Virus record (IMG/VR): IMGVR_UViG_3300006149_000003
Direction: 5' to 3' (one strand)
Source of the DNA: a virus
Lineage: Duplodnaviria > Heunggongvirae > Uroviricota > Caudoviricetes
DNA: 64,000 nt
This document shows, piece by piece, positions 15,382-60,756 of the stretch. The notes beneath the pieces are model-generated. The model saw nothing but the letters and a program-made list of their open reading frames with translations. It searched no databases and was not told the DNA's origin. The stretch's first letter is position 1, and each line of letters begins with the position of its first letter. The position numbers and the translations under genes were made by a program.

Positions 15382-15816
15382 TTAGAACGGAAGCTCACCG
15401 TCATCCTCAGTCTCACCGGATTCTACCTCACTCTCGGCGGTGGGAGGAGGTGCTTTCTTTGTAGATTTACCCTTGGTGGCGGGCGCAGAGGCATTTTCCT
15501 CACCTTGCCCCTTGCTACCACAGAACTCTACACGGTCGGCCTTAATCTCCCATGCAATGCGGTTGTTGCCCTCTTTGTCCTCGTATTTGCGGCTCTGCAT
15601 CTCACCTTGCACCAAGATTTCCTGCCCTTTGGAAAAATACTTGGACACAAACTCGGCAGTCTGCCGCCAGAACACAACAGTAAAGAAATCCGTCTCCTTA
15701 TCTTTAGAATAGGGGCGATCTACGGCAACATTCACCGTACACACAGCGGTGTCACTCTGGGTGTAGCGCAGTTCAGGATCTTTGGTCAGTCGGCCTTTAA
15801 TGATGATACTATTCAT
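15382..15816 (-). CDS. ssb: single-stranded DNA-binding protein
   Basis: OB-fold SSB pattern and acidic C-terminal tail ending DDGELPF. Confidence 0.85.
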   Translation of the reverse strand: MNSIIIKGRLTKDPELRYTQSDTAVCTVNVAVDRPYSKDKETDFFTVVFWRQTAEFVSKYFSKGQEILVQGEMQSRKYEDKEGNNRIAWEIKADRVEFCGSKGQGEENASAPATKGKSTKKAPPPTAESEVESGETEDDGELPF

Positions 15817-16559
15817 GCTCCATTGCCTCCTACAAATTTCTTAACCGCTTCCAAGACATCAGTGGCGGTCTTCATGTTGGTAACAATCCGGTAGTTGCCG
15901 GACGGCTTGCCCTTTTCGTCCTTGACGTGTTTCTTCACCACGGCAGTTAGCTTAGTGCGGGCGTCTTTCAGTTTCTCCTCGTCCTGGAAGCTGTTGAGGT
16001 AGTTGGAAATAAGCTCGTCGATTTCGTCAATCATGGCGGAAACGACTGCCCGCTCCTCTTCCTCAGCGGCCTGTAGCTTCTTACTCCGCCAGTTGTCGGG
16101 GTCGTCGTCAGGTGTAGCGATCTGGAAAAACTTCAGCAGGAAGTAGCGGTGGAGATAGCTAAGACCGCTGCCGACCGCTTGGCTGGCGTCGCTCTGCTGA
16201 CCGACAATTACCCACGGCACCACCAGTGTGTCTTCCGGATTGTCCAAGTTGATCCATGTAAAGGTCATGTCGGCCTTAACCAGCACCTCGTTGACGCTCT
16301 CTTCGATCTTCTTGCCATCTTTGGCATTCTTGATCTTGGTGTAGTTGTACGGGCTTACCTCCGCCGTCTGCGGGACAATGCCGGGATACAACAGAACATG
16401 GTATTTATCCATGCCGGCTGTCACACGGGCCAGAATCTCATCCTCGGACACATACTTGTAGTTGTAGCCCGATTTGTTCTTACGGATAACCTCAACCATC
16501 TTGCGGATACCCGCCAACTTCTGGACAAGGTTTAGGTCTTTGATTTCTTCATTTGCCAT
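15813..16559 (-). CDS. ERF-family single-strand annealing protein
   Basis: N-terminal NKSGYNYKYVSEDEILARV pattern typical of ERF; sits between SSB and nuclease. Confidence 0.5.
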   Translation of the reverse strand: MANEEIKDLNLVQKLAGIRKMVEVIRKNKSGYNYKYVSEDEILARVTAGMDKYHVLLYPGIVPQTAEVSPYNYTKIKNAKDGKKIEESVNEVLVKADMTFTWINLDNPEDTLVVPWVIVGQQSDASQAVGSGLSYLHRYFLLKFFQIATPDDDPDNWRSKKLQAAEEEERAVVSAMIDEIDELISNYLNSFQDEEKLKDARTKLTAVVKKHVKDEKGKPSGNYRIVTNMKTATDVLEAVKKFVGGNGA

Positions 16560-16598
16560 ACTATCCTCCTTGATTTTGTTTGTTGTTAACCGAGATTT

Positions 16599-16856
16599 TT
16601 AATCGTCACCAAACGATTTGAGCATAAAGCATGAGTCGCAATAGCACTCACCGCTTGATTCGATTCGTACATATTCGCCGGTAATTGCTTCGCCACAGCC
16701 GTCGCACACGATTGTTGACGCATATGCCCCATCGCAGACTGGGCAACCGCTGAATTGCTCATATGGTGGCGTGTCCAATCCGTGACGTTCTTCCCATCTC
16801 TTGGGTTCATCGAAAGTCGCCCCACAGTCCAAACAGGTGTATTCTCCCAACATCAA
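16599..16856 (-). CDS. zinc-ribbon protein
   Basis: CLDCG...CPVCDG...CDGCG...CYCDSC. Confidence 0.35.
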   Translation of the reverse strand: MMLGEYTCLDCGATFDEPKRWEERHGLDTPPYEQFSGCPVCDGAYASTIVCDGCGEAITGEYVRIESSGECYCDSCFMLKSFGDD

Positions 16857-17131
16857 TGCTTAACCACTTTCCAAACGGCAGTATTGCGAGTGGTGATCTG
16901 ACTCCGGCGTTTGCCGACCACCTCTACTACACCATCCTCTTTCAACTCTGTCAAACGAGGACGAGTAAAGTTAGGGTCAATGTGAGAAATCTTTCCGTCG
17001 TGAAGAAGCTGCTGGGCAATCTCTTCCGCCGTCATACCCCCAGGATCGCCATTCTTTAGCACCTCCAGGATCATATCCTTACGGCTTTCCCGTTTCGGTT
17101 TAATCTCATTGTAGGCTTCACGACGATTCAT
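16853..17131 (-). CDS. winged-helix DNA-binding protein
   Basis: MTAEEIAQQLLHDG...VVEVVGKRR wHTH-like; annotated start codon is TTG so the ATG at about 17131 was used. Confidence 0.4.
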   Translation of the reverse strand: MNRREAYNEIKPKRESRKDMILEVLKNGDPGGMTAEEIAQQLLHDGKISHIDPNFTRPRLTELKEDGVVEVVGKRRSQITTRNTAVWKVVKH

Positions 17132-17194
17132 AATTACGATGCTCAAAGGATCTCATCCTTTCTATTAGGAAGCTGATACCAGCCCGTTTTTGCA

Positions 17195-17202
17195 CCCCCC
17201 CC
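17195..17202. repeat. C8 homopolymer tract (in C5-MTase 3' end)
   Basis: Seen directly. Confidence 0.9.
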
Positions 17203-17774
17203 ACCAGCTTCGGCTTTCAGGGCACGGGCCACGGTACTTCCATCGTAAATGCGGTTAGCATCTCCGTTGTAGTCGTTGATATATCCAAGCTGGTGGAGAT
17301 CGTCACTTTCGATAGCCCGATTTTGTTCGTCGCTATTAGGCGATTTATCAAAACTGGCAAGCGCCTTTTCAAAAGCGCCAATACCAGAGAAAAAAGATCC
17401 TACCACCATATCTTCAAAAAGATACGGCATAGCTTCACACAGTTCTCCCATAATGGCACAAAGCACATCCACCACAATGGAATTTCCGGCCTGCTTGTAA
17501 AGCTGAGAGCCGCTACGGTCATTGCCACTGTATAGGTTCTGATTCATTGCGGTTTGTGCCTTAGCGAAGTCTTCGTCTGTGAAGCCCATAAGCCGCCAAC
17601 ACTCTCGCTGGGTGAGCTTTCTCACCCGAAACCCTGGACGGATCGCGATAGGCGTTTGTCCGCCACCCATCCGTGCCGCACTGTTTACACACGGGCAAAT
17701 CCCGTCCGACCGGGGAGATTGGTGTTTCTGAAGACCACCAATCATTGTAATATCGTTCTCAATCACTCTCTTGT

Positions 17775-17783
17775 CCCCCCCCC
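17775..17783. repeat. C9 homopolymer tract at C5-MTase frame junction
   Basis: Seen directly; +1 restores the frame. Confidence 0.9.
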
Positions 17784-18215
17784 GTCAATGGTGCGAATCG
17801 TGCCGCAGACATCATCTCGGAAAAACCGAATGCCCTCGTCACATCGCTGCTCACATACAATCTTCATATCTTCTTCATCCTCCATGGTAATTTCCATAAC
17901 CAGTTGTCTTCGTTTCTTTTTAAGATACTGTTGGATGGTGGTGCCCTTATAGTAATTTGCATCAATGCAATATGCCACTGGTGGTGCAAGCAACACCTTT
18001 ACCAAGTCATTCATTCTTCTCCATCACTCCTGTCATTTGCTGGTTCCCAAAGCCTTTGTAATCGCGGGCCAGCAGTGCCAAGGCTGTATCGCAGTACCCT
18101 TCAAACTTGCTTCCTTTCTTACTCAGTTTCACGCCGGAAAGAGAGCAAATCCCATGAGTGCCTGTCTGTGGAGCCTCGACCTCCGGCTCTGACGGTGTTA
18201 CTGATTGGTTTGAGC

Positions 18216-18224
18216 GGGGGGGGG
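18216..18224. repeat. G9 homopolymer tract (in-frame PPP within C5-MTase fragment)
   Basis: Seen directly. Confidence 0.9.
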
Positions 18225-18689
18225 TAATCATGGCAGCTACTTTATCGTCAGATAGGTAATAGCGCTCGTCAACATGGTCGTCAAGCATATCGACCAGCGC
18301 CTTTTTCAGCGGAATCGGCGTGGGAAACTTGAATTTTCCGTTGTCCAGATCCTTGCGGACGATGACACAATACACACGCTCTCGGTTTTGAGGAATACCA
18401 TAGTGTTTTGCGTTCAGCACCTGCCAATAGACATTGTAGCCGTAGTCTTCCAACTCTTTTACAAAGAGGTCGAAAGTGGTGCGGAAGCGGGAACCAGTAA
18501 TGTTTTTGACATTTTCATAGATGGCAAAGCGGGGCTTCTTTTCTCTCAGGAAGCGCAACCATTCGACGAGCAAAGAAGAACGAGTCTTCTCAATCTCGGT
18601 TGAACCACACTTAGGGCAATGGTCACGCTGATCGTAGTGAGCTTCCAGAGGGTTGTACACATGACCGCAGTGTTTACAAGTCCATGCAG

Positions 18690-18698
18690 CCCCCCCCC
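18690..18698. repeat. C9 homopolymer tract at C5-MTase frame junction
   Basis: Seen directly; -1 restores the frame into a CxxC...CxxC insert and the ENV motif. Confidence 0.9.
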
Positions 18699-18902
18699 TG
18701 TTTGCCCGCTATGCTGAAGTCCTGGCACGGGCTTCCACCAAACATGGTGTTAAAATCTGGAACAGCTTTCTCGTCGGCCTGTGTGATATCACCGATGTTG
18801 GCTGTCGAATCGACACCGTGAATGGCGCAATAGCTTTCTGCGGCGTACTTATCGAACTCGCAGAAAAGGGCGGTTTTGAAATCCAAGGTTCTTACCTCCT
18901 AT

Positions 18903-18931
18903 ATTATAGCGTATTTCGGGCTTCTTGTCAA
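18903..18931 (-). promoter_or_regulatory. sigma-A consensus promoter driving the C5-MTase locus
   Basis: Minus strand TTGACA (18926-18931) - 17 nt - TATAAT (18903-18908), then AGGAGG and TTG start at 18886. Confidence 0.5.
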
Positions 18932-18959
18932 CGATTTTGTTCGTTGTTAATGAAGTTTT

Positions 18960-19486
18960 TTATGCGCTTTTGTCGATCTCCTCAAAGATGATTTGCTTCG
19001 GGAGTATGCTGTAGCACCCATACACGCTACTGAACGGCGGGTTAAGCGACGGTTTTTGATCCGTATAACTCTTGAAGTAAGAGACACGGCGGTTCAGATA
19101 CATAATCTCGAAATCGTGATCTCGGAACATACTGAACCGCCGCTGGCTCTCAAAGAGTCCCACCACACCGACCAGCATGGCAAAGGGGATTTTGAGCTGG
19201 AACAGCCGCTCAAACACTTCACCTTTCAGAGAGTAGGGCGGGTTGCTGATAATATAGTCGCACTGTGGCGGTTCCAACTCAAAGAAATCCTGCCCGTTGC
19301 AAATGTGCGTAGCAATTACGGTATACCCGCGCTGGCGGAACAGCTTTACGAATAGGCTATCCTCCGTGTCAAAGGGGCACCATATCACTGCGGGGGGGGT
19401 GCTAAATACTTGTACAGCGGAGCAATCGCATACTCCGGCGTGTAGAACTCGTCGTTGCCGCTACCGGCAACTTTATCCATCTTCAT
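18960..19486 (-). pseudogene. N6-adenine (NPPY) DNA methyltransferase, frameshifted at G8 tract (candidate phase-variable gene)
   Basis: ATG 19486 with AGGAGG SD gives MKMDKVAGSGNDEFYTPEYAIAPLYKYLAPPPQ-stop. Deleting one G from the 19392-19399 tract continues into ...VIWCPFDTEDS...IISNPPYSLKG (ORF 18960-19388). Confidence 0.7.
19392..19399. repeat. G8 homopolymer tract at N6-MTase frame junction
   Basis: Seen directly; -1 or +2 restores the frame. Confidence 0.9.
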
Positions 19487-19531
19487 AAAAGATTCCTCCT
19501 TGGTCATAAAAGTCTGCTTTCATCCTACTGA

Positions 19532-20086
19532 CTACTTTTTGTTCCCCATCATCGAATCAAGGCCAATCACGTCGGCAAGTTTTTCCCCGATTTGCCTTTT
19601 CACCTCTTCCGTAATCTTTTTCTTGATGTTGTCCGTAACTTCGGTAGTAGCCCTCTTAATTGCATATTCCATATCGTGGTTTACGGCCTTATCAAGAATG
19701 TATTCCAGGCGCGTTTTACAGGAGCCATATCCGGAGGCGGGCTTTCCAGAGCTGTCTACTTTTTGATCCAGGTATTGAGCGCAGGACTCCTTCAACTGCT
19801 CCCGAACGGTTATACCACGCTTTACAACATCTCCCCACCTATCGGTGATGTCTTTAGGCGTGTCAAAAAACTCCTGCATCATAGCATTAAGTTTTTCGCT
19901 GATTTCGTTTTCGAGGGATGCCATTTTTGCGTCTAAGAGTTTTCTCGCTTCGCTTTCCAAAGAGTTTGTGATGTTTGTTCCAACCTTTGCGACAATGCCC
20001 GAAAGAATTTCGTCCCTCAGCCGCCCGTCAAGGTTCTCTTCCTCGTCCAACCAGTCCAAGTTGACTGTTACATTAAATGTTGCCAT
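19532..20086 (-). CDS. hypothetical coiled-coil protein
   Basis: ORF; probable start MATFNV. Confidence 0.35.
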   Translation of the reverse strand: MATFNVTVNLDWLDEEENLDGRLRDEILSGIVAKVGTNITNSLESEARKLLDAKMASLENEISEKLNAMMQEFFDTPKDITDRWGDVVKRGITVREQLKESCAQYLDQKVDSSGKPASGYGSCKTRLEYILDKAVNHDMEYAIKRATTEVTDNIKKKITEEVKRQIGEKLADVIGLDSMMGNKK

Positions 20087-20106
20087 TGCAAAAACCTCCA
20101 TAGTTT

Positions 20107-20937
20107 TTAGAATGAGCACTCACAAGGCAAGTTGCCATCATCTTGGACAAGTTTCCTTGCTGCCGCCCAGAACTTTTGCGGCTTAGTCTTCTCAGATGGT
20201 GGTAATGCTTTTTCTTTGAGCCTGGCAAATTCCATCTCAAAATCTGAAAGATAGCCCTGTTTGAGAATGCTGTATCCGATAGCCGCCTCAGCCTGTTTTG
20301 CTTTCTCCCAGATCTCGGGATAAAGACAATAGACAATAAACCAGTGCTGTTTACCAGCTTTGAGGCAACCGGTGCAATTTGCATGATTGAAAATGCTGTA
20401 GGTCTTCGGACGTTCGATCCCAACCTCTTCAATATTATGAACAGTACGTATCTCCCAGGTCAGCGGGTATTCCGTGTGATATCCCATAGCAGCCATGATA
20501 CCAACCCTACGCTGAATACGATGCTGCTCATTAGTATCAAAGCCGTAGACCAGAGAAATATCGTCCCTTATCTGGGGAGGATTTGTGGGATAGTGCTCGG
20601 ATAACCACTTATGAAACGGTTCGGTCTTTAGCCTGTTTGTGCAGAAAGCGGTTGACTGAGCGCCAGACTTGAACGCTTTAATTTCCATACACACATCAAA
20701 CTGGTCTTTGACTTCCCATCCAGGCATATTGGCATAAGTGATAGGAACGCCCAAATAATCCGAAACCTCATTCTTAAAACGTTTGATATCTTCGTCTTCG
20801 GTACGGGGACATAGGTCATGATTGAGCAAAATCGTGTTCTCTGCCCCGTACCTTCTGACTACCTCCACGGCGGCGATTGCTGAAGAATGACCGCCAGAAA
20901 AACATACGATGTGTTTCATACCGACCACAACCATCAC
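20107..20937 (-). CDS. PP-loop ATP pyrophosphatase family protein (adenine nucleotide alpha hydrolase)
   Basis: N-terminal HIVCFSGGHSSAIAA (SGGxxS PP-loop), C-terminal Cys motif NCTGC...C. Confidence 0.55.
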   Translation of the reverse strand: MMVVVGMKHIVCFSGGHSSAIAAVEVVRRYGAENTILLNHDLCPRTEDEDIKRFKNEVSDYLGVPITYANMPGWEVKDQFDVCMEIKAFKSGAQSTAFCTNRLKTEPFHKWLSEHYPTNPPQIRDDISLVYGFDTNEQHRIQRRVGIMAAMGYHTEYPLTWEIRTVHNIEEVGIERPKTYSIFNHANCTGCLKAGKQHWFIVYCLYPEIWEKAKQAEAAIGYSILKQGYLSDFEMEFARLKEKALPPSEKTKPQKFWAAARKLVQDDGNLPCECSF

Positions 20938-21076
20938 TGGCTGAGGTCAACTGCCTAATCCTCCTAAGCTACTTTCCACAAACCTAAAGTCCGTGTTTGA
21001 ATAATTTCACGCTGTAACAGGCAGCTTTACCATGTACTTATCAATCTTACATGAACCTGGTTTACCAGGATTGGTA

Positions 21077-21352
21077 TTAACTCCTTCCGTTGTTATTGTT
21101 CGTTTGTGAACTCTTGAAGTATTTTCCGATTGTAGCCAGTGTTGCACAGGCCAATGGAATGAAATCCGGGGTAAATCGGGTTGTGTTGAACATTAGGTTC
21201 ATGCCACCAGCGATGGCATTGCCAACACATACTTTTAGTATCCAGCCACCGATCCATGCACACCCAAATGTGAGAACCGGACTGAAAACCAGCAATCCGA
21301 TAAATCCTAAAATGGTCGTTACAATGCCGATACCCTCAAATGTCCTTTTCAA
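21077..21352 (-). CDS. small integral membrane protein
   Basis: 91 aa, two hydrophobic helices. Confidence 0.35.
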   Translation of the reverse strand: MKRTFEGIGIVTTILGFIGLLVFSPVLTFGCAWIGGWILKVCVGNAIAGGMNLMFNTTRFTPDFIPLACATLATIGKYFKSSQTNNNNGRS

Positions 21353-21369
21353 AACTTACACTCCTTTAC

Positions 21370-22376
21370 TTATTCAATAGGCACACCGATATACTCAAGC
21401 ACTCTCTGCATACCAAGACCATGTTCTTCCCACGGCTTCATGCAGTAGCTCCAGAGTTTTGGGTGGGTTGTTTTCAGACGTTGGAAACGGTTCGGTGCCT
21501 TTTCCAGATGAGCGCCAAAGGCACAAAAGACACAGCCAGTACGCTTTTCTCCTGTTGTTGTCCACCCCCCCCGTCAGTCTTAATGATCTCGCCATAGACA
21601 GGTGCATAGGGGATTTGGTAAGTGTAAAGATATTCGAGTACGTCTTCCTCTGTCCAAAACGACATAGGCTGAGAACTGGGTTTCTTGCCAGAAAAGGCGT
21701 TGCACCCCATACGCAACCATGTAGCGCGGCGGGATCGGCTCTCATTCGCCATTGTTGCGATGATAGGCACTCTTCCAGTTTCCTTAGCGTATTTCTTCAT
21801 GGGGCGCTTTTTCATAACAGCACAGCATCGGGAAGATACCTTAAAGGGCGCATCCAGCAGATAACACCATTTCTCACAATTAAACTCTGAGGGTGTCCCA
21901 TTGCTCCGCATAATCTCGCCGTGTAGTTCCTTCCACCGGAAGGAGCCAGGCTTATGCCCGTACTCTACTGTGTCAGCTACACGCTTGGAAACCACAGGAT
22001 ATCCGTATACCTCAATAACTTTTCGGAAATTCATCTCAGGTTTTACCACTACCACATTGTCTCGGCTCATGGCAAATTGGCGAACCTCTGGAAACTCTAA
22101 CCCAGTATCCGAGAACACAGCCGGCACATCAGGATAGATACGCCGCACAATATCAAGGAGTACGGTCGAGTCCTTGCCGCCAGAAAAGGCCACATAGACC
22201 TTGCCATTGTAATGCTGATACCATTCGATGATCCGAGCTGTGGTAATCTGGATTTTGCGGGGAAGAGGCAGACGCTGCATTTCTTCCAGTTGTTCCTTGC
22301 TATGCAAAACGTCCACCTCCTTGCCCGCCACCGCCTCCTCCATCAAACAGATAGAGGAGAAGCAGTAGCAAAGCAC
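21370..22376 (-). CDS. PAPS-reductase/TtcA-like PP-loop protein (frameshifted at C8 tract 21565-21572)
   Basis: VAFSGGKDSTVLLD PP-loop. After the Gly run the current frame gives nonsense; adding one G/C restores a conserved-looking tail GCVFCAFGAHLEKAPNRFQRLKTTHPKLWSYCMKPWEEHGLGMQRVLEYIGVPIE ending at 21370. Confidence 0.6.
21565..21572. repeat. C8 homopolymer tract in PAPS-reductase-like gene
   Basis: Seen directly; +1 restores a conserved-looking C-terminus. Confidence 0.9.
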
Positions 22377-22409
22377 AACCTATGAAGATATAAACCTCAT
22401 TTGACATAA

Positions 22410-22868
22410 TTAACTCCCATGGTCTTCGGTAGCCTTCGGCAGAGCAGGCTGATGAGTAGTAGCCAACCAGTAATTGATGACTTTGTTGTAGCTGTTGTCA
22501 TTGCCCATGAAACGCTTGAGCATAGCGGCCATCAAACCAGTCTCTGCGCTGAAGGTGTCTCCCTGCTGACACTTCACCACAGTCTTCGTACCGTCACTCC
22601 AATAGACAATGGTAGCGGGATCGTTAAAGATCAAACGCTCAATCTCAGGAAGAAGTGTGTCGGAATGCTGCCGCATATGCCGCAGTGCAGCGTTCCAGCC
22701 ATTGTGAAATCCCTCGTGATCCATTGCCGTCTCAACCCCTTTGGATTCAGCAGGCAAAGACAGAAGCCGACGCAAATCACCATTTACTGGTACAGCCACA
22801 AAATTTGCGAGGGGGGGGTGAACCTGAACAGCCCTCAGCGGATACAAACTCATTTCATTGTTACGCAT
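22410..22868 (-). CDS. hypothetical protein
   Basis: 152 aa; AGGAGG SD before ATG; contains in-frame C8 tract near the N-terminus. Confidence 0.35.
   Translation of the reverse strand: MRNNEMSLYPLRAVQVHPPLANFVAVPVNGDLRRLLSLPAESKGVETAMDHEGFHNGWNAALRHMRQHSDTLLPEIERLIFNDPATIVYWSDGTKTVVKCQQGDTFSAETGLMAAMLKRFMGNDNSYNKVINYWLATTHQPALPKATEDHGS
22811..22818. repeat. G8 homopolymer tract near the 5' end of gene 22410-22868
   Basis: Seen directly; currently in frame. Confidence 0.9.
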
Positions 22869-22891: not shown

Positions 22892-23812
22892 TTAATGTGC
22901 ATGACGGTCACAGTCATTCAAGACCATAACCTGATTCCAGATATCCTCACCGAGCAAGCCTTTGAACTTTCTCTCCGTCTTGTTCGGGTTATCTGACTTT
23001 TCTACTGCGAAAGGTGCCATATGCCAGCGAATCAAAAGTGCTACTTTCAACCTTTCGTGCAGAGTCAAATCGGTAGTGTGGGCAAAGCTCTCATAAGCAC
23101 CGACACGCTCATGTTGATAAAAATGAGCAATATCTGTAGGTTCACCTTTGGCATTACAGAAAACTTTCGTATACTCCTTGCCAATATCGTGAATCGCTAC
23201 CGCCCGGCCCAAAGAGATATCATTCACCCACTGGGGATACTGTTTGTCGAAATACTCATAGGCCGTTAGCATATGTTGCCCTACAGTAAACTCATGATGG
23301 GGATTATCGTGCTCCAGAGCTGCAAGGCGGGAGAGCAGAAGGCTGATACCGCCGATAAACGGTTCCACACCCTCAACCCAGATTTCGTCCCAGCCTTCAG
23401 CTTCCATAGGGATATCAAAACCCCGGTACATTCGGTCGATCACATTCTCTGGAACACTACGTTCACGGTTGGCGTTGCGCTCTACACAGAGGATATACGG
23501 CGTCGCCATGAAAACGCACACTTTCTTGATCTGGGGATTAACAGCGGTGACACGATGCAGAAATCCCATTCGGCGCTTGTAACTGACATTCGTGGCGTCG
23601 TAGACCACATCTTTACCAGCACGCAAATCGGAGAGCACACGGTCATGGAGCGTCTGGAATACCAGCTCCTGGTGGTTTTGGTCGGAGATGTCACTCAGTA
23701 GCTCTTCACGAATGGTATCACTGGAATGGATCACGGCGTCAGGCAACTTGTTCTCGGCATACCAAGACTTTCCACTTCCAGGAAGACCAACCATCATATA
23801 GAAGCACTGCAT
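22892..23812 (-). CDS. polynucleotide kinase (P-loop) fused to HD-domain phosphohydrolase, Pnkp-like RNA/DNA end-healing enzyme
   Basis: N-terminal MVGLPGSGKSWYA Walker A; C-terminal HDIGK...H...H...D HD motif pattern. Confidence 0.6.
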   Translation of the reverse strand: MQCFYMMVGLPGSGKSWYAENKLPDAVIHSSDTIREELLSDISDQNHQELVFQTLHDRVLSDLRAGKDVVYDATNVSYKRRMGFLHRVTAVNPQIKKVCVFMATPYILCVERNANRERSVPENVIDRMYRGFDIPMEAEGWDEIWVEGVEPFIGGISLLLSRLAALEHDNPHHEFTVGQHMLTAYEYFDKQYPQWVNDISLGRAVAIHDIGKEYTKVFCNAKGEPTDIAHFYQHERVGAYESFAHTTDLTLHERLKVALLIRWHMAPFAVEKSDNPNKTERKFKGLLGEDIWNQVMVLNDCDRHAH

Positions 23813-23813
23813 T

Positions 23814-24617
23814 TTACTTACCCTCCTGTAATTCCATCAGAAACCGCCGCTTCAAAATCTCCACCGTCGCTGTCTGTAGCACCTGATCGGCGTGCTGATT
23901 GATTGCGAGAGGCACTGTATCCATATATTGCTTTTTATCGGCGATCATGGAATCAACTGCCTCCTGCATAAGCTGCCGCGCCTCCTCTAAGGTGTGACAC
24001 CCTCTTTTTACCTCTACAAGGTAATCCGACTGTTTGCTAACCAGACAATCAAAATAATTTTCGCCGGCCATATAGCGGGTCATAAATTCCCGCATCCGCA
24101 AGGCATGATGAAGCTGCTTAGGGTCGTACCCAAATTGCTCAATCTTGGCAAGAGCGGCGGGATAAGGATGCTCCATAGCGTGTTGCTTTTCCAACGCCAT
24201 ACCCAGCAGACAACTCATACCAGCATAGTTGTTATAGCGGGCAATATCTTCTCTGGCGTCCAACACCGATTGAAACAGATCGGTGTAGAGCGGGTTGATA
24301 ATGCAGTAGGGCGTGAACAGAATCTCAATGAAATTGACGTTTTGTTTGCGAATACACTCAAACATGAGCCGAATATCCTTAAAGTCCACGTGCTCATCGT
24401 TTTCCATAACATGGGTGGTGCTGACGGGCTTGTGGGTAAGAACGAAATCTGAGAAGCTGGGGAGTACGATTGCCTTGGTATCAATATCGCTACTCTCATA
24501 ATCCAGTTTGTAATTTTGTGAACCTTGCAGGAACAGGCCAACCCACGCATCTCCGAAGTGTTCTTGAACGGTAGCCAAATGCTCTTGCATCCGAGCCATA
24601 ATGCGCTCCTTATTCAT
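23814..24617 (-). CDS. Pol-beta-superfamily nucleotidyltransferase domain protein
   Basis: GSQNYKLDYESSDID (GS...D.D NTase motif), 267 aa. Confidence 0.5.
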   Translation of the reverse strand: MNKERIMARMQEHLATVQEHFGDAWVGLFLQGSQNYKLDYESSDIDTKAIVLPSFSDFVLTHKPVSTTHVMENDEHVDFKDIRLMFECIRKQNVNFIEILFTPYCIINPLYTDLFQSVLDAREDIARYNNYAGMSCLLGMALEKQHAMEHPYPAALAKIEQFGYDPKQLHHALRMREFMTRYMAGENYFDCLVSKQSDYLVEVKRGCHTLEEARQLMQEAVDSMIADKKQYMDTVPLAINQHADQVLQTATVEILKRRFLMELQEGK

Positions 24618-24921
24618 CGCTACACTCCTTCTTTCTCACACAGTCTCGTAAAATCCGCTGATAGAGGGAGGGGTCATACCCCTCCATATCAGCCCAGAAC
24701 ATCAAATACTCTGTGGTGTACTGATCGGTCACATCACCGGAGACATCGTAAAGCCGGCCACCGATTTCCTGAACGAAGTGGTTAATCACTGGCTCATACA
24801 TCATGTTTCCGCCAAATCTCTCTTGAAGAATAAAGGCAAACCAGTAACAGCAGCCATTTAGAAAAACCTCCTCAGAGCCTTTGAAGTTCTGGATAAAGTT
24901 GAGGATTGTAGACTTATTCAT
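24610..24921 (-). CDS. hypothetical protein
   Basis: 103-aa ORF. Confidence 0.3.
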   Translation of the reverse strand: MNKSTILNFIQNFKGSEEVFLNGCCYWFAFILQERFGGNMMYEPVINHFVQEIGGRLYDVSGDVTDQYTTEYLMFWADMEGYDPSLYQRILRDCVRKKECSDE

Positions 24922-26402
24922 CCCTCTTCTTCCATAACCTCCACCTCCTGGGCTTCCTCCATATCCGGCGCAGCGGCGGTATCTTTAATAAGCCCCTCCA
25001 GTGCCTTGAAGTAGAAGTTCTTATGCTTGTAGGCCGCAAACTTGGGACGATTGACAATCCGACACACAACGCCCTCTCGAATATGGGTTTTGCCAACAGG
25101 GTCGGGGCCGTCATAATACCTCTCTGCGATAGCTTTGATGTATTCGCCAGCGTCCACAGCTTGGGGAGAACCCACAGCGTCGGGAAGCTGAACCATATCC
25201 GGGATAAAGCAACGCCAGAACAGCGGCACACACTTGACACCCATCTGTTCACAGCGATAACGCATGAAGTCGGGCGGGTACTCCACCACATCACCATCCT
25301 CGTTGGTCATGGTCATCCGGTAGACATAGATGTCGGATTTGGGAACAGGCTCGGCAGATACTCCAGAACCGTCTGCTGTCGTTTTCTTGCCGGTAGGATC
25401 GCAGCCATAGCTAAAGAAAGTGGTTTTGCCGTACTGTTTGGAAAACTCCTTGTCACCAATCTTGGCGTTATTGCTAGGAGACATGATGGGCGTGCCATCA
25501 TCCGTGAAACCCACCACCTCATAGTAGACCTCCTCGCCTTTGTGGAGCTTCCCTTCAAAAATCTTGGCGTGCTGTTCACGGAAAGCATTGCTACCATAGA
25601 AACCTCCGTCAAAGCTATCCAACACTACACGGCGGGTTCCGGTAACATAACCCCAATCATAGATGGGCGTCCGCTCAATCATAGAGCGTAGCCAGTTCGG
25701 AGTTTTATCGCTCTCAAACAGCCGCTTTTGCAAACCGTTCTTATACTTGTAGCCTTGAAGCACAGGAAGATAGCCAGTACGCTGACTGGTGCCGTGCATT
25801 TTCAGCGTGATCTCTACCAGGTCGCCGGCACGGAAAGCAGACAGATTGTAGGCAAGCTGCTCTGTATCGGCGTGTTCCATGAAGAGCGGAGAAATCGGAT
25901 CGGACTTCTTGCGGACACGACTTCCGCCGCCAGGACTTCCACCACTACGGTTGCGCTTAGGAATGTACTTCTCACAGATGGTGATACCGTTCACGACAGA
26001 AATTGTGTCTCCATCTTTCAGCAAAGAGGTATCAATAAATCCCTCCATGCAGGAGATGGGCAGAAACAAGCCATCACTTTTTTCTCCTCGGAGCTTCAGC
26101 GCCTTAATGTTGCGCTTCTCTGGATCGAGGTAGCCGCCGGCGGGGTTGCCGTTCTCATCTTTTCGCCGCAGAAGGTCGTTCTTCTGAGCGAACTCTACAC
26201 CGAGCTTGCCGTCTACGGGGAAGTAGACCCCCAGCTGGTCAGGTTCGGTTCCAAGATCCACAATTACCGTGTTCCCAAAGCACTCGCCACAGAGCAGACG
26301 ATCAGCGTTGGTGTGCTTACGCAGATTGCGGATTTTGGTGACATACGCACAATACATTTGCATCTCTCCTTTGATTTTATTCGTTGTTAATAGAAAAAAC
26401 AA
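24918..26402 (-). CDS. ATP-dependent RNA ligase-like nucleotidyltransferase with N-terminal tRNA-binding (EMAP/Trbp111-like) OB domain
   Basis: Motif I KSDG (LKLRGEKSDGLF); N-terminal YVTKIRNLRKHTNADRLLCGECFG resembles tRNA-binding OB domains; probable start MQMYCAY. Confidence 0.55.
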   Translation of the reverse strand: MFFLLTTNKIKGEMQMYCAYVTKIRNLRKHTNADRLLCGECFGNTVIVDLGTEPDQLGVYFPVDGKLGVEFAQKNDLLRRKDENGNPAGGYLDPEKRNIKALKLRGEKSDGLFLPISCMEGFIDTSLLKDGDTISVVNGITICEKYIPKRNRSGGSPGGGSRVRKKSDPISPLFMEHADTEQLAYNLSAFRAGDLVEITLKMHGTSQRTGYLPVLQGYKYKNGLQKRLFESDKTPNWLRSMIERTPIYDWGYVTGTRRVVLDSFDGGFYGSNAFREQHAKIFEGKLHKGEEVYYEVVGFTDDGTPIMSPSNNAKIGDKEFSKQYGKTTFFSYGCDPTGKKTTADGSGVSAEPVPKSDIYVYRMTMTNEDGDVVEYPPDFMRYRCEQMGVKCVPLFWRCFIPDMVQLPDAVGSPQAVDAGEYIKAIAERYYDGPDPVGKTHIREGVVCRIVNRPKFAAYKHKNFYFKALEGLIKDTAAAPDMEEAQEVEVMEEEG

Positions 26403-26422
26403 AAAAGAATAAATATAGGGGG

Positions 26423-27577
26423 TTAGGAATACATAGCTTTCAGCCTATGCGCCACACTCGCAACACCCTGAGCAGCTTGACGCATTTCATCTTCCGTAGT
26501 ATCAAACCCCATTGAAATACGGACGGTACAGGCAGCGCTTTCCTCAGATAATCCAATTCCACGCAGAACGTGTGAAGTTGTGGCGTCGGATGCGCTGCAA
26601 GCGGAACCAGCAGAAAGGTAGATGTCTTGCTGATCCAGCAACAGAAGTAAAGATTCGCTGTTGACTCCCGGCAGTGTCAAGCTGATGATAGCGGAGGAAC
26701 GCCGGTCGGTATCGCCGTTGATATGAAACTCTCCATCCATTTCGACATTAAGCTCATTCAAAAACACATCCCGCAAATGTGCCCACTGTGCCATCTGCCT
26801 TGGCAGGCGCTTGGTCGCTATCTCTGCCGCTTTGCCAATCCCCACGATTCCTGGTACATTCTCGGTGCCGCCTCGCAATCCACGCTCCTGACCTCCACCA
26901 TAAACCCACGGTTCCTTTCTGATTCGATTGGAGATATACAGCACTCCAATTCCCTGGGGTGCTCCGAACTTATGACCGGAGAGAGATAGGAAGTCCACAT
27001 TATAGGCGTGAACGTCGATTGGAACGTGACCCGCCGCCGCTACTGCGTCTGTATGGAAAGGAACGTCATACTTTTTACAAAGTGTTCCGATTTCTTTGAT
27101 AGGATTCACCGTTCCAAGTTCGTTGTTGACCCACATGACAGAAACGGCACCCAGCTCTTTCTTGTTTTCAATGATAAGCCGCTCCAAATCATCCAGGTCT
27201 ACCGAGCCGTCCGACCAAACCCTTGCGTATTTCATAACAACGGGGAGCGGGCATACACACGCATTTTTCAACGGTTCAGAAATCGAATGATGCTCAATCT
27301 CGTCCGTAAGGACAACGTGTTTGGTCAGACATCGGAACCAGGCGTTGTTCGCCTCAGTTCCGCCGGAGGTAAAAAATATCTCCGAAGGGTCTGCACCGAT
27401 CATTAGCGCTACCTGTTCTCGTGCCTTTTCGATAGCGTGGCGGGCGTTGATACCCTGGGAATGGATACTGCTGGGGTTTCCAACATGACACGTCTGAAAC
27501 CATGGAAGCATGGTATCCAAGACTTCGGGAAAAGGTGCGGTCGATGCCGCATGGTCGAGATAGACCAATGATATCAC
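26423..27577 (-). CDS. cysteine desulfurase (class V aminotransferase, IscS/NifS family)
   Basis: DHAASTAP...GNPSSIHSQG, PLP-lysine SGHKFGAPQGIGVLY, active-site SAGSACSA. Confidence 0.85.
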   Translation of the reverse strand: MISLVYLDHAASTAPFPEVLDTMLPWFQTCHVGNPSSIHSQGINARHAIEKAREQVALMIGADPSEIFFTSGGTEANNAWFRCLTKHVVLTDEIEHHSISEPLKNACVCPLPVVMKYARVWSDGSVDLDDLERLIIENKKELGAVSVMWVNNELGTVNPIKEIGTLCKKYDVPFHTDAVAAAGHVPIDVHAYNVDFLSLSGHKFGAPQGIGVLYISNRIRKEPWVYGGGQERGLRGGTENVPGIVGIGKAAEIATKRLPRQMAQWAHLRDVFLNELNVEMDGEFHINGDTDRRSSAIISLTLPGVNSESLLLLLDQQDIYLSAGSACSASDATTSHVLRGIGLSEESAACTVRISMGFDTTEDEMRQAAQGVASVAHRLKAMYS

Positions 27578-27660
27578 TCCTTCGTATAAGAAGAGGCTCA
27601 GACCGTAGACAGCCGGCGTGCTACTCTATCGTTCTGAGCCTCCTTTGATTTTATTCGTTA

Positions 27661-29220
27661 TTAGTCGTTGACAACAGGACGCAGTGCGTCCTCGATAGGC
27701 TGGTAGCGCTCAGTGTTCAGCGTTTCCAACAGACACTCATAGGGATCGAGCTTGCCACTCATCACCATCTGAGCGATGTTGACGGAGAAACCGCTGACCA
27801 GCGCCACGCCCATGTCGTTCTCCCTAACGGGAATCGTCCCAGAGCGGCTGGCAACATTCCAGAACACCAATCTGGGCATTTTGTAACCTGCCTGCTGATA
27901 CCGCCTATTGATCTCGTCAAAAAGGCGGGCGTTTGGCCTCTGCGTGTTGTAGCTCCACCGATCTCTCGAAGGAGCACCGCAGCTGGCACAAGCATCAAAC
28001 TCCATATCGGAAATGATGAGAATGTTGGCAGGCAAGTCATTCTGATTCATATGCTTAGAAACCGCTGTTTCCAGGATGAGATCAAAGACTGCCTCCACGT
28101 TGGTATTGGCTCCAGCATGGCAAGCATGGACAATTTGAAGCCGCTCATAGAGGTTCTTGCCACTGGAGATGTCGAGGAGCTGCGGTCTGTCGGAGAAGGA
28201 CATATACTGATCCTTGAATTGACCAGAAGATCGCTCGGCAAAATAGATCGCCAAGGCGTTTGCCACCTCCAACGGACGAGCGGAACTCCCAGGGAGCATC
28301 ACCCACTCCATACTTCCGCTATCGTCCATAACCACCATCGTGTTTCCACAACCCTGTACCGTGTCAGGCAAATTCTGCCACAATGCCTCCAGTGTGGCGT
28401 CCACGCCGTGGCTCTGACGATACTTGTTGACAATATCGTGCGGGAACAGCGTACCAGCGTTGATCTTGGCCTCGCCGTTCTCCACCCGACTAAGGAACTC
28501 ACGGCGGCGCTCCTCATCGTGGCGGAGGAAAGCCTTGTTGTAAATCAGGTTGGCACGGGAGGGGACTCGCTGGTAATCAATCCCGTCCCAATCGTTCTTG
28601 GACATCTGCTGCTCCACAACAACCAGGTAACGGGACAGGCCAGAAAGAGTATGCCGATAGGTACGCTCGGTCATATTCAACCCTTCGCACAGAATACGGG
28701 CGTAATGACGAGACTCCTTAGAAGAGGACTTGCGGCGCGGCATCCACTTTGCCAGCAGAGAGATCGGCTTCTGCTCGACGTTGTTATGCAGATCGTCATG
28801 CAGCTGCCTTGCCACCAGCTCAATCACCTTATCGCCCACCGGCGTATCCAGCAGACACCAGAGATCGTCCCAACGCCCATACTCAGGCACCAACGACAGC
28901 ACCGGTGTAACGTACTCCGGAAACTTCTTTGCCATCGGCACCATAGCCGCACGAAACAGTCGGCGCTCACCCAGCCCGCCACGCACATCGCGGGCAAAGA
29001 ACAGCCACTTCATCGCTGTCACCTTATCCTCGAAAAACGCCTGGGTGAAGCGATCCGCGATCTCCTTAACGCTGGCGTTACGGAGAGACGCCACGGCAAA
29101 GTTGAGATCCAGCAAAGATCGACCAGTGGTGCGATAGCCGACCGCCCCATTCTCGGTAACAGAGATATTGTTTGCGCCGTCCAGCATCGTGTCCTTGACA
29201 CTTTCCATAAAGTTGCTCAT
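27661..29220 (-). CDS. vWA (MIDAS) domain protein, DUF2828/Ro60-TROVE-like
   Basis: 519 aa; MIDAS VVMDDSGSM in C-terminal half; N-terminal alpha-helical region. Confidence 0.5.
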   Translation of the reverse strand: MSNFMESVKDTMLDGANNISVTENGAVGYRTTGRSLLDLNFAVASLRNASVKEIADRFTQAFFEDKVTAMKWLFFARDVRGGLGERRLFRAAMVPMAKKFPEYVTPVLSLVPEYGRWDDLWCLLDTPVGDKVIELVARQLHDDLHNNVEQKPISLLAKWMPRRKSSSKESRHYARILCEGLNMTERTYRHTLSGLSRYLVVVEQQMSKNDWDGIDYQRVPSRANLIYNKAFLRHDEERRREFLSRVENGEAKINAGTLFPHDIVNKYRQSHGVDATLEALWQNLPDTVQGCGNTMVVMDDSGSMEWVMLPGSSARPLEVANALAIYFAERSSGQFKDQYMSFSDRPQLLDISSGKNLYERLQIVHACHAGANTNVEAVFDLILETAVSKHMNQNDLPANILIISDMEFDACASCGAPSRDRWSYNTQRPNARLFDEINRRYQQAGYKMPRLVFWNVASRSGTIPVRENDMGVALVSGFSVNIAQMVMSGKLDPYECLLETLNTERYQPIEDALRPVVND

Positions 29221-38856: not shown

Positions 38857-38930
38857 ACCTTGATTTTGTTCGTTATTATAAAAAGTTGTGGATGGAGGCT
38901 TTTGAGTAGAGTCCTCCAAGAACCACGCCC

Positions 38931-60470: not shown

Positions 60471-60479
60471 GGGGGGGGG
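60471..60479. repeat. G9 homopolymer tract downstream of int
   Basis: Seen directly. Confidence 0.9.
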
Positions 60480-60545
60480 CTTATCCTGCGATAAGTTTCC
60501 AGCAACTGCCGAGCGAAGCGAGGCAGGATAAGCCGCATTTTTTCA
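60471..60545 (+). terminator. G9 tract followed by 12-bp inverted repeat and T-run (terminator and/or att-associated structure)
   Basis: GGGGGGGGG-GCTTATCCTGC...GCAGGATAAGC-CGCATTTTTTC immediately after the int stop codon. Confidence 0.4.
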
Positions 60546-60756
60546 AATTCAGAGAATACGATTTTCACAACTTTTTCGTGATTTTTGAGCGTAGCGAAAA
60601 TACCCCTTCCCCTTCTAAGGGACGATTTTGAAAAAACCAGTAATATCAAGGCTTTGAGGGGCGTCAAAAACCGAATTTATAACCTTGGAAGTCATAAACC
60701 GATTTTGACCGCCTCTAAAATCCGAACATTTTTAACCGAAAATGGAGGTGCTATAA

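Follow-up and report, generated by a model that had tools for sequence, protein, structure and literature searches.

Length-variable G/C tracts in methylase and other accessory genes of a temperate phage family of gut Oscillospiraceae as probable slipped-strand contingency loci

The window, i.e. the whole stretch of 64,000 nt of phage DNA analysed here, contains nine G/C runs of 8-9 nt (Table 1), which probably act as slipped-strand contingency loci switching counter-defence genes ON and OFF in a large temperate phage family of gut Oscillospiraceae. The excess and clustering of the tracts, the conservation of their positions, length changes that outpace substitution, the full-length family matches restored on correction, and the purifying selection on out-of-frame parts have all been observed. 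A preliminary description of the sequence had proposed slipped-strand, phase-variable tracts with the assembly catching arbitrary OFF states, and the length variation of the relatives at conserved codons supports it.

Table 1. Tracts and tract-associated reading frames of the window (tract names give coding-strand letters)
Feature	Position	Strand	Window-strand letters	Context	State in window
C5 cytosine methylase ORF2	17143..18014	-		Variable region, motifs IX and X, then motif I-like FFSGIGAFEKAL	Broken at 17775
Tract G8	17195..17202	-	C8	AEAGGGGAK; C-terminal tail of C5-methylase ORF2	
Tract G9	17775..17783	-	C9	TIDGGGDK; C5-methylase ORF2	OFF; in frame at 10 (or 7)
C5 cytosine methylase ORF1	18007..18886	-		Motifs II-VIII, CxxC...CxxC insert	Broken at 18690
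Tract C9	18216..18224	-	G9	Pro codons, ITPPRS; C5-methylase ORF1	In frame
Tract G9	18690..18698	-	C9	Gly codons past motif IV, PCQDFSIAGKQGG; C5-methylase ORF1	OFF; in frame at 8
N6-adenine DNA methylase	18960..19507	-		DEFYTP ... NPPYS	Split by the 19392 tract
Tract C8	19392..19399	-	G8	YLAPPP; N6-adenine methylase	OFF; in frame at 9 (or 6)
PAPS-reductase / PP-loop ATPase-like gene	21370..22376	-		SGGKDS	Last 64 codons (C-terminal) out of frame
Tract G8	21565..21572	-	C8	KTDGGGW; PAPS-reductase-like gene	OFF; in frame at 9 (or 6)
Putative 152-aa ORF	22410..22868				
Tract C8	22811..22818	-	G8	VHPPL, codons 17-19 of the 152-aa ORF	In frame
62-aa membrane-protein ORF	about 32480..32668				
Tract G8	32653..32660	-	C8	Overlaps second ATG of the membrane-protein ORF (read from sequence)	
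Tract G9	60471..60479	+	G9	Intergenic, 37 nt past integrase stop, followed by an imperfect inverted repeat	No reading frame

All nine tracts listed earlier were found at their coordinates, and the claim that they lie far above chance is borne out by an order-3 Markov model. The window holds 19, 2, 0 and 9 G/C runs of 5, 6, 7 and at least 8 nt, against expected counts of 37, 7.9, 1.5 and 0.55, respectively, and simulated sequences never contained more than two runs of at least 8 nt. The distribution is bimodal, the runs of 5-7 nt being depleted, and seven of the nine tracts fall inside 5.7 kb (binomial P = 1.4e-6). Related metagenome contigs totalling 266 kb contain 71, 8, 26, 117, 50 and 12 G/C runs of 5, 6, 7, 8, 9 and 10 nt, and their A/T runs fall steadily (470, 222, 9, 2 and 1). 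The 13 contigs carrying both modules have 3.63 tracts per 10 kb of modification module vs 0.23 per 10 kb of replication module, i.e. the modification and RNA-repair module is 16-fold denser in tracts.

Four tracts coincide with frame breaks, two in the split C5-methylase (18690 and 17775) and one each in the N6-methylase (19392) and the PAPS-reductase-like gene (21565). That these genes are otherwise intact, as described earlier, was confirmed by recomputing the joins, with family matches crossing the junctions. In window-strand letters, C8 at 18690, C10 at 17775 and C9 at 21565 rejoin the frames as reported previously; the N6 gene, said to be in frame with G7 or G10, gains zero upstream codons at these lengths and needs 9 (or 6). 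The required changes in the N6 gene, at 18690, at 17775 and at 21565 were given as +1, -1, -1 and +1; they are indeed non-uniform, with recomputed values of +1, -1, +1 and +1. Profile searches of the corrected proteins matched C5-methylase ORF1 to PF00145 DNA_methylase (1.2e-48), ORF2 to PF00145 (1.6e-08, profile positions 271-322) and the PAPS-reductase-like protein to PF01507 PAPS_reduct (1e-19) and phrog_424 (7.6e-51, residues 10-311, spanning the junction). The corrected N6 protein matched the DNA methyltransferase phrog_799 (7.5e-29, residues 8-172, spanning the junction) and gave no match to Pfam.

The relatives comprise about 70 contigs, which include prophages of Oscillospiraceae isolates and human-gut metagenome contigs; these prophages and the anaerobic NrdD encoded by the phage agree with the earlier assignment to an anaerobic Firmicute. 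Comparison of tract lengths across related genomes, suggested earlier as a check, favours the phase-variable reading. These relatives have the same tracts at orthologous codons, 6-11 nt long and between identical flanks, although DNA identity is only 70-77% and dS is 0.35-1.36 (near saturation), and they stay pure GGG or CCC codons amid saturated synonymous sites. The 422 pairs with an identity of at least 99% (the pairs are not independent) gave 1,661 tract comparisons, 830 of them with unequal lengths, against 0.58% substitutions and 114 non-tract indels over 1.4 Mb. Half of the tracts are unequal in genomes with 0-0.6% substitutions. Between L005 and L032, there are 7 substitutions in 20.8 kb and 6 tracts of unequal length, and L030 and L031 are unequal at 3 tracts. 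The window itself differs in tract lengths from L034, L045, L077 and L141, its C8 being replaced in near-identical genomes by C7, C9 or C10, and its G9 by G8 or G10; in the prophage L034 (94-98% identical), all four frame-broken genes are in frame. Other lineages carry separate tracts in unrelated methylase families (DPPY, NPPF), an RNA ligase and a nucleotidyltransferase.

These differences and frame breaks may also be read as homopolymer errors of sequencing, PCR or assembly in genes that are intact everywhere. Library PCR and several platforms are prone to errors at tracts of 8-10 nt, many metagenome contigs have a very low coverage of 1-5x, at which one wrong read can fix a tract length, and zero-substitution contig pairs share identical tracts, as expected for one dataset deposited twice. 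However, errors are unable to make conserved tracts or a bimodal run distribution, and relatives show both +1 and -1 states at a single site between identical flanks. No frame is broken at any of the 14 A/T runs of at least 7 nt, and non-tract indels are as few as given above despite 1,781 A/T runs of at least 6 nt in the same 1.4 Mb of alignments. Moreover, isolate genomes and contigs at about 30x follow the same pattern as low-coverage contigs, the pairs L030/L031 and L032/L005 being among the isolates and high-coverage SPAdes contigs that differ, and inequality in half of the comparisons is far beyond consensus-level Illumina error. An artefact is very improbable.

In C5-methylase ORF1, which starts with TTG preceded by AGGAGG and whose stop is overlapped by the ATG of ORF2, the CxxC...CxxC ribbon noticed earlier was confirmed from the sequence and gave weak Zn-ribbon matches under the Pfam cut-offs. 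The 18690 tract has lengths of 8, 9, 7 and 6 in 43, 12, 6 and 1 of 62 relatives, and is ON in 44 of them (71%; 43 of length 8 and one of length 7). The 18216 tract is mainly C8 (OFF) or C9 (ON), with 44% ON (n=55), and is C8 in L045, which is near-identical to the window. In ORF2, the 17775 tract is G10 in L034 and L045, and ON in 26% of relatives (n=50). The all-ON combination across these three tracts was observed 7 times vs 3.6 expected, a mild enrichment only. At 17195, where each of the three frames ends 9-24 codons on, lengths are 7-9 in 14 relatives.

The N6 tract at 19392 is C8 (OFF) in 38 and C9 (ON) in 5 of 47 relatives, i.e. 11% ON, with C7 in L141, C9 in L034 and C10 in L077, all near-identical to the window. 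The 21565 tract of the PAPS-reductase-like gene is G9 in L034 and ON in 35% of relatives (n=31), and the 22811 tract is C9 in L034; homologues of the 152-aa ORF in other lineages have a C-tract at different N-terminal positions. The 32653 tract lies just past the first start codons with a third ATG directly downstream, and its consequence for the membrane-protein ORF is uncertain; the integrase upstream of the 60471 tract matches phrog_216 (2.1e-41). The 17195, 32653 and 60471 tracts have no clear ON/OFF consequence. The predominance of OFF assemblies for some genes, such as the N6-methylase and ORF2, would fit recoding or weak selection in lysogens too.

Purifying selection on the coding sequence 3' of the tracts is strong, with dN/dS values of 0.03-0.08 that include OFF alleles; the value is 0.036 among N6 alleles that are all OFF, and 0.06 for the 64 codons past the PAPS tract, which 30 of 32 relatives retain intact. 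Whatever the tract state, nearly all relatives have unbroken flanking ORFs. As judged from these substitution patterns, the tract-bearing genes are functional over evolutionary time. Neutral decay, in which G/C runs would be mutational hotspots and the breaks incipient pseudogenes of dispensable prophage genes, with no selected switching, agrees with the frequent decay of accessory prophage genes and with the OFF majority in several tract genes, but it is countered by these dN/dS values, the intact flanking ORFs and a lack of build-up of other stops or frameshifts. It also leaves the persistence of GGG and CCC in the tracts, codons that make up 17.5% of Gly and 23.5% of Pro codons, and the genome-wide purge of short G/C runs alongside tract enrichment in one module, in need of explanation, and is considered very unlikely.

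Strong purifying selection on the N6 gene, despite its being out of frame in 89% of genomes, also speaks for recoding, wherein the tracts would be programmed frameshift or transcriptional-slippage sites, one-nt-short alleles being decoded full length at a set efficiency through -1 slippage of the ribosome on C CCC CCC / G GGG GGG or stuttering of the RNA polymerase, with DNA variation secondary. An 8-nt homopolymer is formally a perfect slippery heptamer, and OFF alleles are mostly one nt short of ON (N6 38/42, PAPS 16/20, C5 ORF2 25/37), the class that a -1 slip would rescue, which counts for recoding; a mutational equilibrium near 8, however, accounts equally well for this excess. For five tracts, the 80 nt that follow showed no significant RNA structure (z -1.3 to +1.2), every site has in-frame alleles, and the OFF alleles of the mostly in-frame 18690 tract are mainly one nt too long. 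A fixed recoding signal needs no DNA length variation of the kind seen among near-identical genomes, and recoding is, on balance, very unlikely.

In the favoured contingency-locus model, the tracts, encoded as GGG (Gly) or CCC (Pro) codons, would gain or lose one base at high frequency by slipped-strand mispairing during replication, and each gene would alternate between an in-frame ON and a truncated OFF form, the window genome being OFF for the C5-methylase, the N6-methylase and the PAPS-reductase-like gene. The genes so affected would be accessory, putative counter-defence genes, i.e. in the window the two-ORF C5-methylase, N6-methylase, PAPS-reductase-like gene, 152-aa ORF and small membrane protein, and in relatives also the other methylases, RNA ligase and nucleotidyltransferase. 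With 7-11 independent switches, many combinations of DNA modification may arise per burst or lysogen population, hedging between hosts whose restriction-modification demands methylation and hosts whose modification-dependent nucleases punish it; the pattern looks like phage bet-hedging against host defences. We infer slippage, the reversibility and rate of switching, the enzymatic activities and the bet-hedging benefit from the comparisons above. Lysogens would differ epigenetically from one another if the host chromosome were a substrate of the prophage methylases.

M.AquI is a split C5 methylase of two subunits and M.BssHII a circularly permuted one. The window enzyme resembles them in having catalytic motifs over two polypeptides or in non-canonical order, but differs in that its predicted ORF1 begins past motif I, ORF2 places a motif I-like segment after IX and X, and each ORF has its own homopolymer switches.

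The tracts of the window family are probably similar in their dynamics to those of C. jejuni, and share with the Fletchervirus / C. jejuni system a bimodal run-length distribution with a modal length of 8-9. Campylobacter (Fletchervirus) phages have hypermutable polyG tracts (Sorensen et al. 2021, Cell Rep 35:109214, cited in PMC12823448); these are likewise G/C homopolymers of about 8-10 nt in phage ORFs, whose length change switches frame and yields mixed phage populations. They lie in receptor-binding genes of virulent phages whose Gram-negative host itself uses polyG switching, whereas the window family is temperate, has Gram-positive gut anaerobes as hosts and carries its tracts in genes for DNA modification and RNA repair; the window has no receptor-binding gene.

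In phage T2, the DNA-modification gene agt is a contingency locus between two Type IV systems, its frameshifts giving escape from one modification-dependent (Type IV) nuclease and sensitivity to another (Gomez, Barrick and Waters 2025 preprint, PMC12633550). It offers a homopolymer in a phage DNA-modification gene with reversible frameshifting, the logic suggested above for the methylases. In T2, whose genome is AT-rich, the repeats are A runs; more than 100 runs of at least 6 are spread over every class of gene, and neither a purge nor clustering is evident (PMC12633550), in contrast to the G/C-only runs, depletion of shorter G/C runs, deep conservation and concentration in one module in the window family. 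The T2 case is experimental (PMC12633550), whereas the evidence for the window family is comparative.

Phasevarions of Haemophilus, Neisseria, Helicobacter and Moraxella (ModM, PMC6902483) similarly have a simple-sequence repeat in a methylase ORF with stochastic ON/OFF switching. They belong to restriction-modification systems of Type III (or Type I or IIG) on the chromosomes of Gram-negative pathogens, often with tetra- or pentanucleotide repeats, in contrast to the putative orphan phage methylases of the window family, each of which may carry several tracts and whose host is a Firmicute; no nuclease gene adjoining the methylases was identified. The earlier view that several such switches would be unusual in a phage of an anaerobic Firmicute implied less precedent than there is, as phage contingency loci, including one in a DNA-modification gene, have been described (Sorensen 2021, cited in PMC12823448; PMC12633550). 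The window family is, from its sequences, a new and unusually dense case of a known kind in temperate gut Firmicute phages.

All nine G/C runs of the preliminary description were confirmed at their exact coordinates, and its remark that such runs are far more numerous than expected is borne out by an order-3 Markov model, which predicts 0.55 runs of at least 8 nt against the nine recorded, with a maximum of two in any simulation. The run-length spectrum of the window is anomalous in both directions: runs of 5, 6 and 7 (19, 2 and 0) fall below the Markov expectation (37, 7.9 and 1.5), and the longer runs lie above it. Over-representation was judged by the Markov nulls and not by a synonymous-codon shuffle, which is uninformative here, as the frame-break tracts lie outside the called ORFs and are never shuffled, so that its mean of 5.1 runs of at least 8 is spurious. 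Seven of the nine tracts are clustered within 5.7 kb (P = 1.4e-6), and seven of the nine lie inside ORFs. The methylase-region genes are on the minus strand, where each tract reads as consecutive GGG (Gly) or CCC (Pro) codons; GGG accounts for only 17.5% of Gly and CCC for only 23.5% of Pro codons in the window.

The comparison set consisted of 26 related viral contigs, 6 genome loci and 39 metagenome contigs. The DNA of the relatives is only 70-77% identical to the window. Cultured Oscillospiraceae, among them Dysosmobacter segnis and Hominicoprocola fusiformis, carry relatives as prophages, and human-gut metagenomes commonly contain them. INPHARED phages gave no Megablast match to 15-25 kb of the window, and its nearest cultured relatives, judged by DNA polymerase, are C. 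difficile phages (42% identity); hence, there is no annotated reference. Every relative in the set displays a window-like run spectrum. The metagenome contigs (266 kb) contain 71, 8, 26, 117, 50 and 12 G/C runs of 5, 6, 7, 8, 9 and 10 nt, while A/T runs show a steady fall (470/222/9/2/1). Genome-wide, G/C runs of 5-7 are strongly depleted in the window and in all family loci, with about 4 G/C 5-mers against about 35 A/T 5-mers per 20 kb at ~50% GC, even in the tract-poor replication module; this depletion suggests that G/C runs are generally mutagenic for the phage or its host.

The frame joins were re-derived by shortening or lengthening each tract by at most 2 nt and determining the stop-to-stop frame that runs through it. 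The join lengths proposed earlier for the tracts at 18690 (8), 17775 (10) and 21565 (9) were reproduced, and those proposed for the N6 methylase (G7 or G10) proved wrong, leaving no upstream frame whatever. The required changes are +1, -1, +1 and +1; the direction is therefore still non-uniform, as the preliminary description had it, though not with the values it listed. Profile searches with the corrected frames, which it had suggested, gave family matches across the junctions for the C5, PAPS-reductase-like and N6 proteins. As evident from the four joins, the in-frame alleles of relatives and the matches spanning the junctions, a change in tract length toggles the genes between a full-length and a truncated frame.

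Homopolymer tracts and associated features of the window
Feature	Position	Strand	Observation
Tract, C5 ORF2	17195		C-terminal tail; every frame stops within 24 codons
Tract, C5 ORF2	17775		Frame joins at 10 or 7; 80 + 209 codons
Tract, C5 ORF1	18216		In frame in window
Tract, C5 ORF1	18690		Frame joins at 8; 66 + 226 codons
Tract, N6 methylase	19392		Frame joins at 9 or 6; 40 + 143 codons
Tract, PAPS-reductase-like gene	21565		Frame joins at 9 or 6; 269 + 64 codons
Tract, 152-aa ORF	22811		In frame in window
Tract, predicted 62-aa membrane protein	32653		Overlaps early start codons
Tract, intergenic	60471-60479		G9, 37 nt past integrase stop; no reading frame involved
C5 methylase	17143-18886	minus	Two overlapping ORFs; ATGA overlap at 18007-18014
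phrog_424 paralogue	20107-20937	minus
91-aa ORF	21077-21352		Between the paralogues
phrog_424 paralogue	21370-22376	minus
RNA-repair-like cassette	22892-29220	minus	Adjoins methylases
AAA_33 kinase	22892-23812	minus	Weak HD match, below threshold
Nucleotidyltransferase	23814-24617	minus
RNA ligase	24918-26402	minus
phrog_12787	26423-27577	minus
phrog_850 'RNA-binding protein'	27661-29220	minus
Start of predicted 62-aa ORF	32645-32668	minus	G8 overlaps second ATG
1041-aa helicase	35794-38919	minus	phrog_24008; no tract
Imperfect inverted repeat	about 60480-60560		After G9 tract

The split C5 gene can be assigned, by profile scores above the cut-off and by conserved motifs, to the C5 cytosine DNA methyltransferase family. 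PF00145 matches the joined ORF1 at 1.2e-48 (166.6 bits) and ORF2 at 1.6e-08 (34.8 bits; cut-off 22), and PCQDFS, ENVKN, QNRER, RKLTQRE and GNSIVV are seen in the translations. The CxxC...CxxC insert noted earlier is present in ORF1, after motif IV. ORF1 begins directly after motif I (LDFKTALFCEFDKYA...). The methylase appears to be permuted: motif I (FSGIGAF) is absent from its N-terminus, a motif I-like segment (FFSGIGAFEKAL) is located after motif X near the C-terminus of ORF2, and with this segment grafted onto ORF1 the PF00145 score rises from 166.6 to 176.9 bits. The split, permuted arrangement is kept in relatives (L031 at 15720-17670, L023 and L035), some of which have a third small ORF, a variable-region fragment of the C5 methylase with its own tract. 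In the L031 clade, a tract at the start of ORF2, nearly always G8 and at a site absent from the window, could be either ON (in frame) via an internal ATG or OFF (out of frame) by two steps.

The joined N6 protein matches phrog_799 over residues 8-172 (7.5e-29), and the Pfam profile search gave no match for it; once the frame is joined it carries NPPYS and EFYTP, the motifs from which alone its base specificity is predicted. The joined PAPS-reductase-like protein matches PF01507 (1e-19, 71.7 bits; cut-off 22.5) and, over residues 10-311, phrog_424, with an SGGKDS PP-loop present, and falls in the PAPS reductase / PP-loop ATPase family. Of the two neighbouring phrog_424 paralogues, only one bears a tract; the tract-free one is 100% identical in the relative L034. 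The paralogues possibly act in DNA modification. At the site orthologous to 21565, two relatives (L006 and L026) have GATA+G8 and the others GAT+G9: the first base of the tract has changed from G to A, which shortens the tract and retains the frame, as if the switch had been retuned in evolution or partly locked.

The preliminary description had also called for a comparison of tract lengths in related phage and prophage genomes. The tracts of relatives were found at identical codon positions with identical flanks, and their lengths vary from 6 to 11. The state was called by the flank frames, longest-total-ORF calling having been dropped because it sometimes picked antisense ORFs. The ON fraction spans from 71% for the first tract of C5 ORF1 (n=62 relatives), through 44% for its second tract (n=55), 35% for the PAPS-reductase-like gene (n=31) and 26% for C5 ORF2 (n=50), down to 11% for the N6 methylase (n=47). 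Other lineages have tracts of their own in DPPY- and NPPF-type methylases, RNA ligase and nucleotidyltransferase, and their homologues of the 152-aa protein bear a tract at shifting positions. A tblastn outgroup comparison of codon use at the tract positions with six distant loci (L027-29 and L036-38) returned nothing, the three genes not being encoded there.

In near-identical genomes the tracts appear hypermutable. Alignments of 422 locus pairs that share at least 99% identity cover 1.4 Mb with 0.58% substitutions; tract lengths differ in 830 of 1,661 comparisons, and only 114 indels occur elsewhere despite 1,781 A/T runs of at least 6 in the alignments. Over 20.8 kb, the isolate prophage L032 and the metagenome contig L005 show 7 substitutions and 6 tract-length differences. 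In L034, 94-98% identical to the window, all four broken genes are in frame (G9, C9, G8 and G10), and six of the seven shared tracts differ from those of the window. The relative L045, with 2 mismatches in 4.5 kb, has C8 and G10 against 9 and 9 in the window; L077 has C10 and G8 against 8 and 9. A 1.7-kb contig (L141), the sole match of an exact-protein look-up for copies of the window phage, has C7 at the N6 site.

Sequencing error could add noise in low-coverage contigs, and isolates and ~30x contigs behave like the low-coverage ones. It cannot create conserved tracts and a bimodal run spectrum. Both +1 and -1 states are found at one site on identical flanks, and none of the 14 A/T runs of at least 7 in the window lies at a frame break. 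In 13 contigs containing both regions, tract density per 10 kb is 3.63 in the modification module against 0.23 in the dUTPase/replication region, and G/C 5-mers are scarce in both alike. Whatever the tract state, nearly all relatives keep the flanking frames intact. Downstream of the tracts, dN/dS is 0.03-0.08 (dS 0.35-1.36), and in a set of N6 alleles confined to OFF states it is 0.036. These data indicate that the tract-bearing genes are kept rather than decaying. As the homopolymers persist amid saturated neighbouring synonymous sites, the tracts themselves are under selection.

Rescue of OFF alleles by a -1 ribosomal slip or polymerase stutter at the tracts is a minor possibility. OFF alleles are mostly one nucleotide short of ON, which is the class such an event would rescue, although this excess would equally arise if mutation holds tract length in equilibrium near 8 and the genes are in frame at 9-10. 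The slippery heptamer is supplied trivially by the homopolymer, and the sequence after five tracts (80 nt each) is no more stably folded than its shuffled versions (z from -1.3 to +1.2); structure-stimulated -1 frameshifting at these five tracts is therefore unsupported. The N6 site, with 89% of alleles out of frame, comes nearest to a fixed out-of-frame arrangement, but in-frame alleles occur at all sites, alongside alleles that are out of frame in either direction.

The window belongs to a large temperate phage and encodes a DnaE-like polymerase, primase-helicase, exonuclease and ERF recombinase, together with anaerobic NrdD, dNMP kinase, dUTPase, a DarB-like helicase and an integrase. The RNA-repair-like cassette may counter anticodon nucleases; its RNA ligase and nucleotidyltransferase have no tract in the window, and G8 tracts occur in both genes in relatives. 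The 1041-aa helicase, whose N-terminal region matches methyltransferase and DarB-like antirestriction families, is likely another counter-defence gene. The third ATG of the 62-aa ORF (ATG CTT ATG GGG GGG GTA GAG ATG...) is 5 nt downstream of its G8 tract, and hence a change of tract length may do no more than alter an N-terminal extension of 7 residues or the context of ribosome binding. The intergenic G9 tract and the inverted repeat following it (CTTATCCTGC ... GCAGGATAAG) may act as a terminator or be situated close to the attachment site.

Among the features that mark contingency loci, over-represented repeats in ORFs, length polymorphism between close relatives, frame switching and selective maintenance were found here. 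The tracts are best explained as slipped-strand contingency loci that would toggle counter-defence genes; the slippage, its switching rate and reversibility, the enzyme activities and the fitness trade-off are what we infer from these comparisons. The benefit would most likely be hedging between hosts with restriction-modification systems that require methylation and hosts with Type IV nucleases that attack it.

A more elaborate joint reading is tentative and, taken as a whole, rather doubtful. The phage DnaE-type replicase, or the host, would be highly slippage-prone on G/C runs, which would be purged everywhere but at selected codons of counter-defence genes. How far the in-frame length (8, 9 or 10) lies from the mutational equilibrium length (about 8) would determine the ON probability of each gene, the phages of a burst would form a tuned mix of as many as 2^7-2^11 states of modification and RNA repair, and predicted phase-variable methylases of prophages would make lysogens epigenetically heterogeneous. 

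If the contingency-locus reading itself is right, up to eleven homopolymer switches would randomise the arsenal for DNA modification and RNA repair in abundant temperate phages of human-gut Oscillospiraceae, a testable bet-hedging system between classical and modification-dependent restriction. Methylome heterogeneity is then predicted in lysogens, and prophage-carrying isolates exist (Dysosmobacter segnis BX15 and Hominicoprocola fusiformis CLA-AA-H269). Automated annotation will label tract-bearing methylases as pseudogenes or fragments, and real OFF states may be silently "repaired" by polishing tools.

A literature search directed at Oscillospiraceae phages turned up no paper, and none of the papers listed by other searches concerned such tracts in phages of gut Firmicutes. 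The same hedging logic has been shown experimentally for agt of phage T2 (PMC12633550), and a precedent is provided by polyG tracts in receptor-binding genes of Campylobacter phages (Sorensen 2021, as cited in PMC12823448). The present loci, if they act as proposed, would take phage contingency loci beyond Campylobacter and T-even phages into phages of Gram-positive gut commensals, and beyond receptor binding into epigenetic camouflage. Phage contingency loci are already known; this case is new, unusually dense and well conserved.
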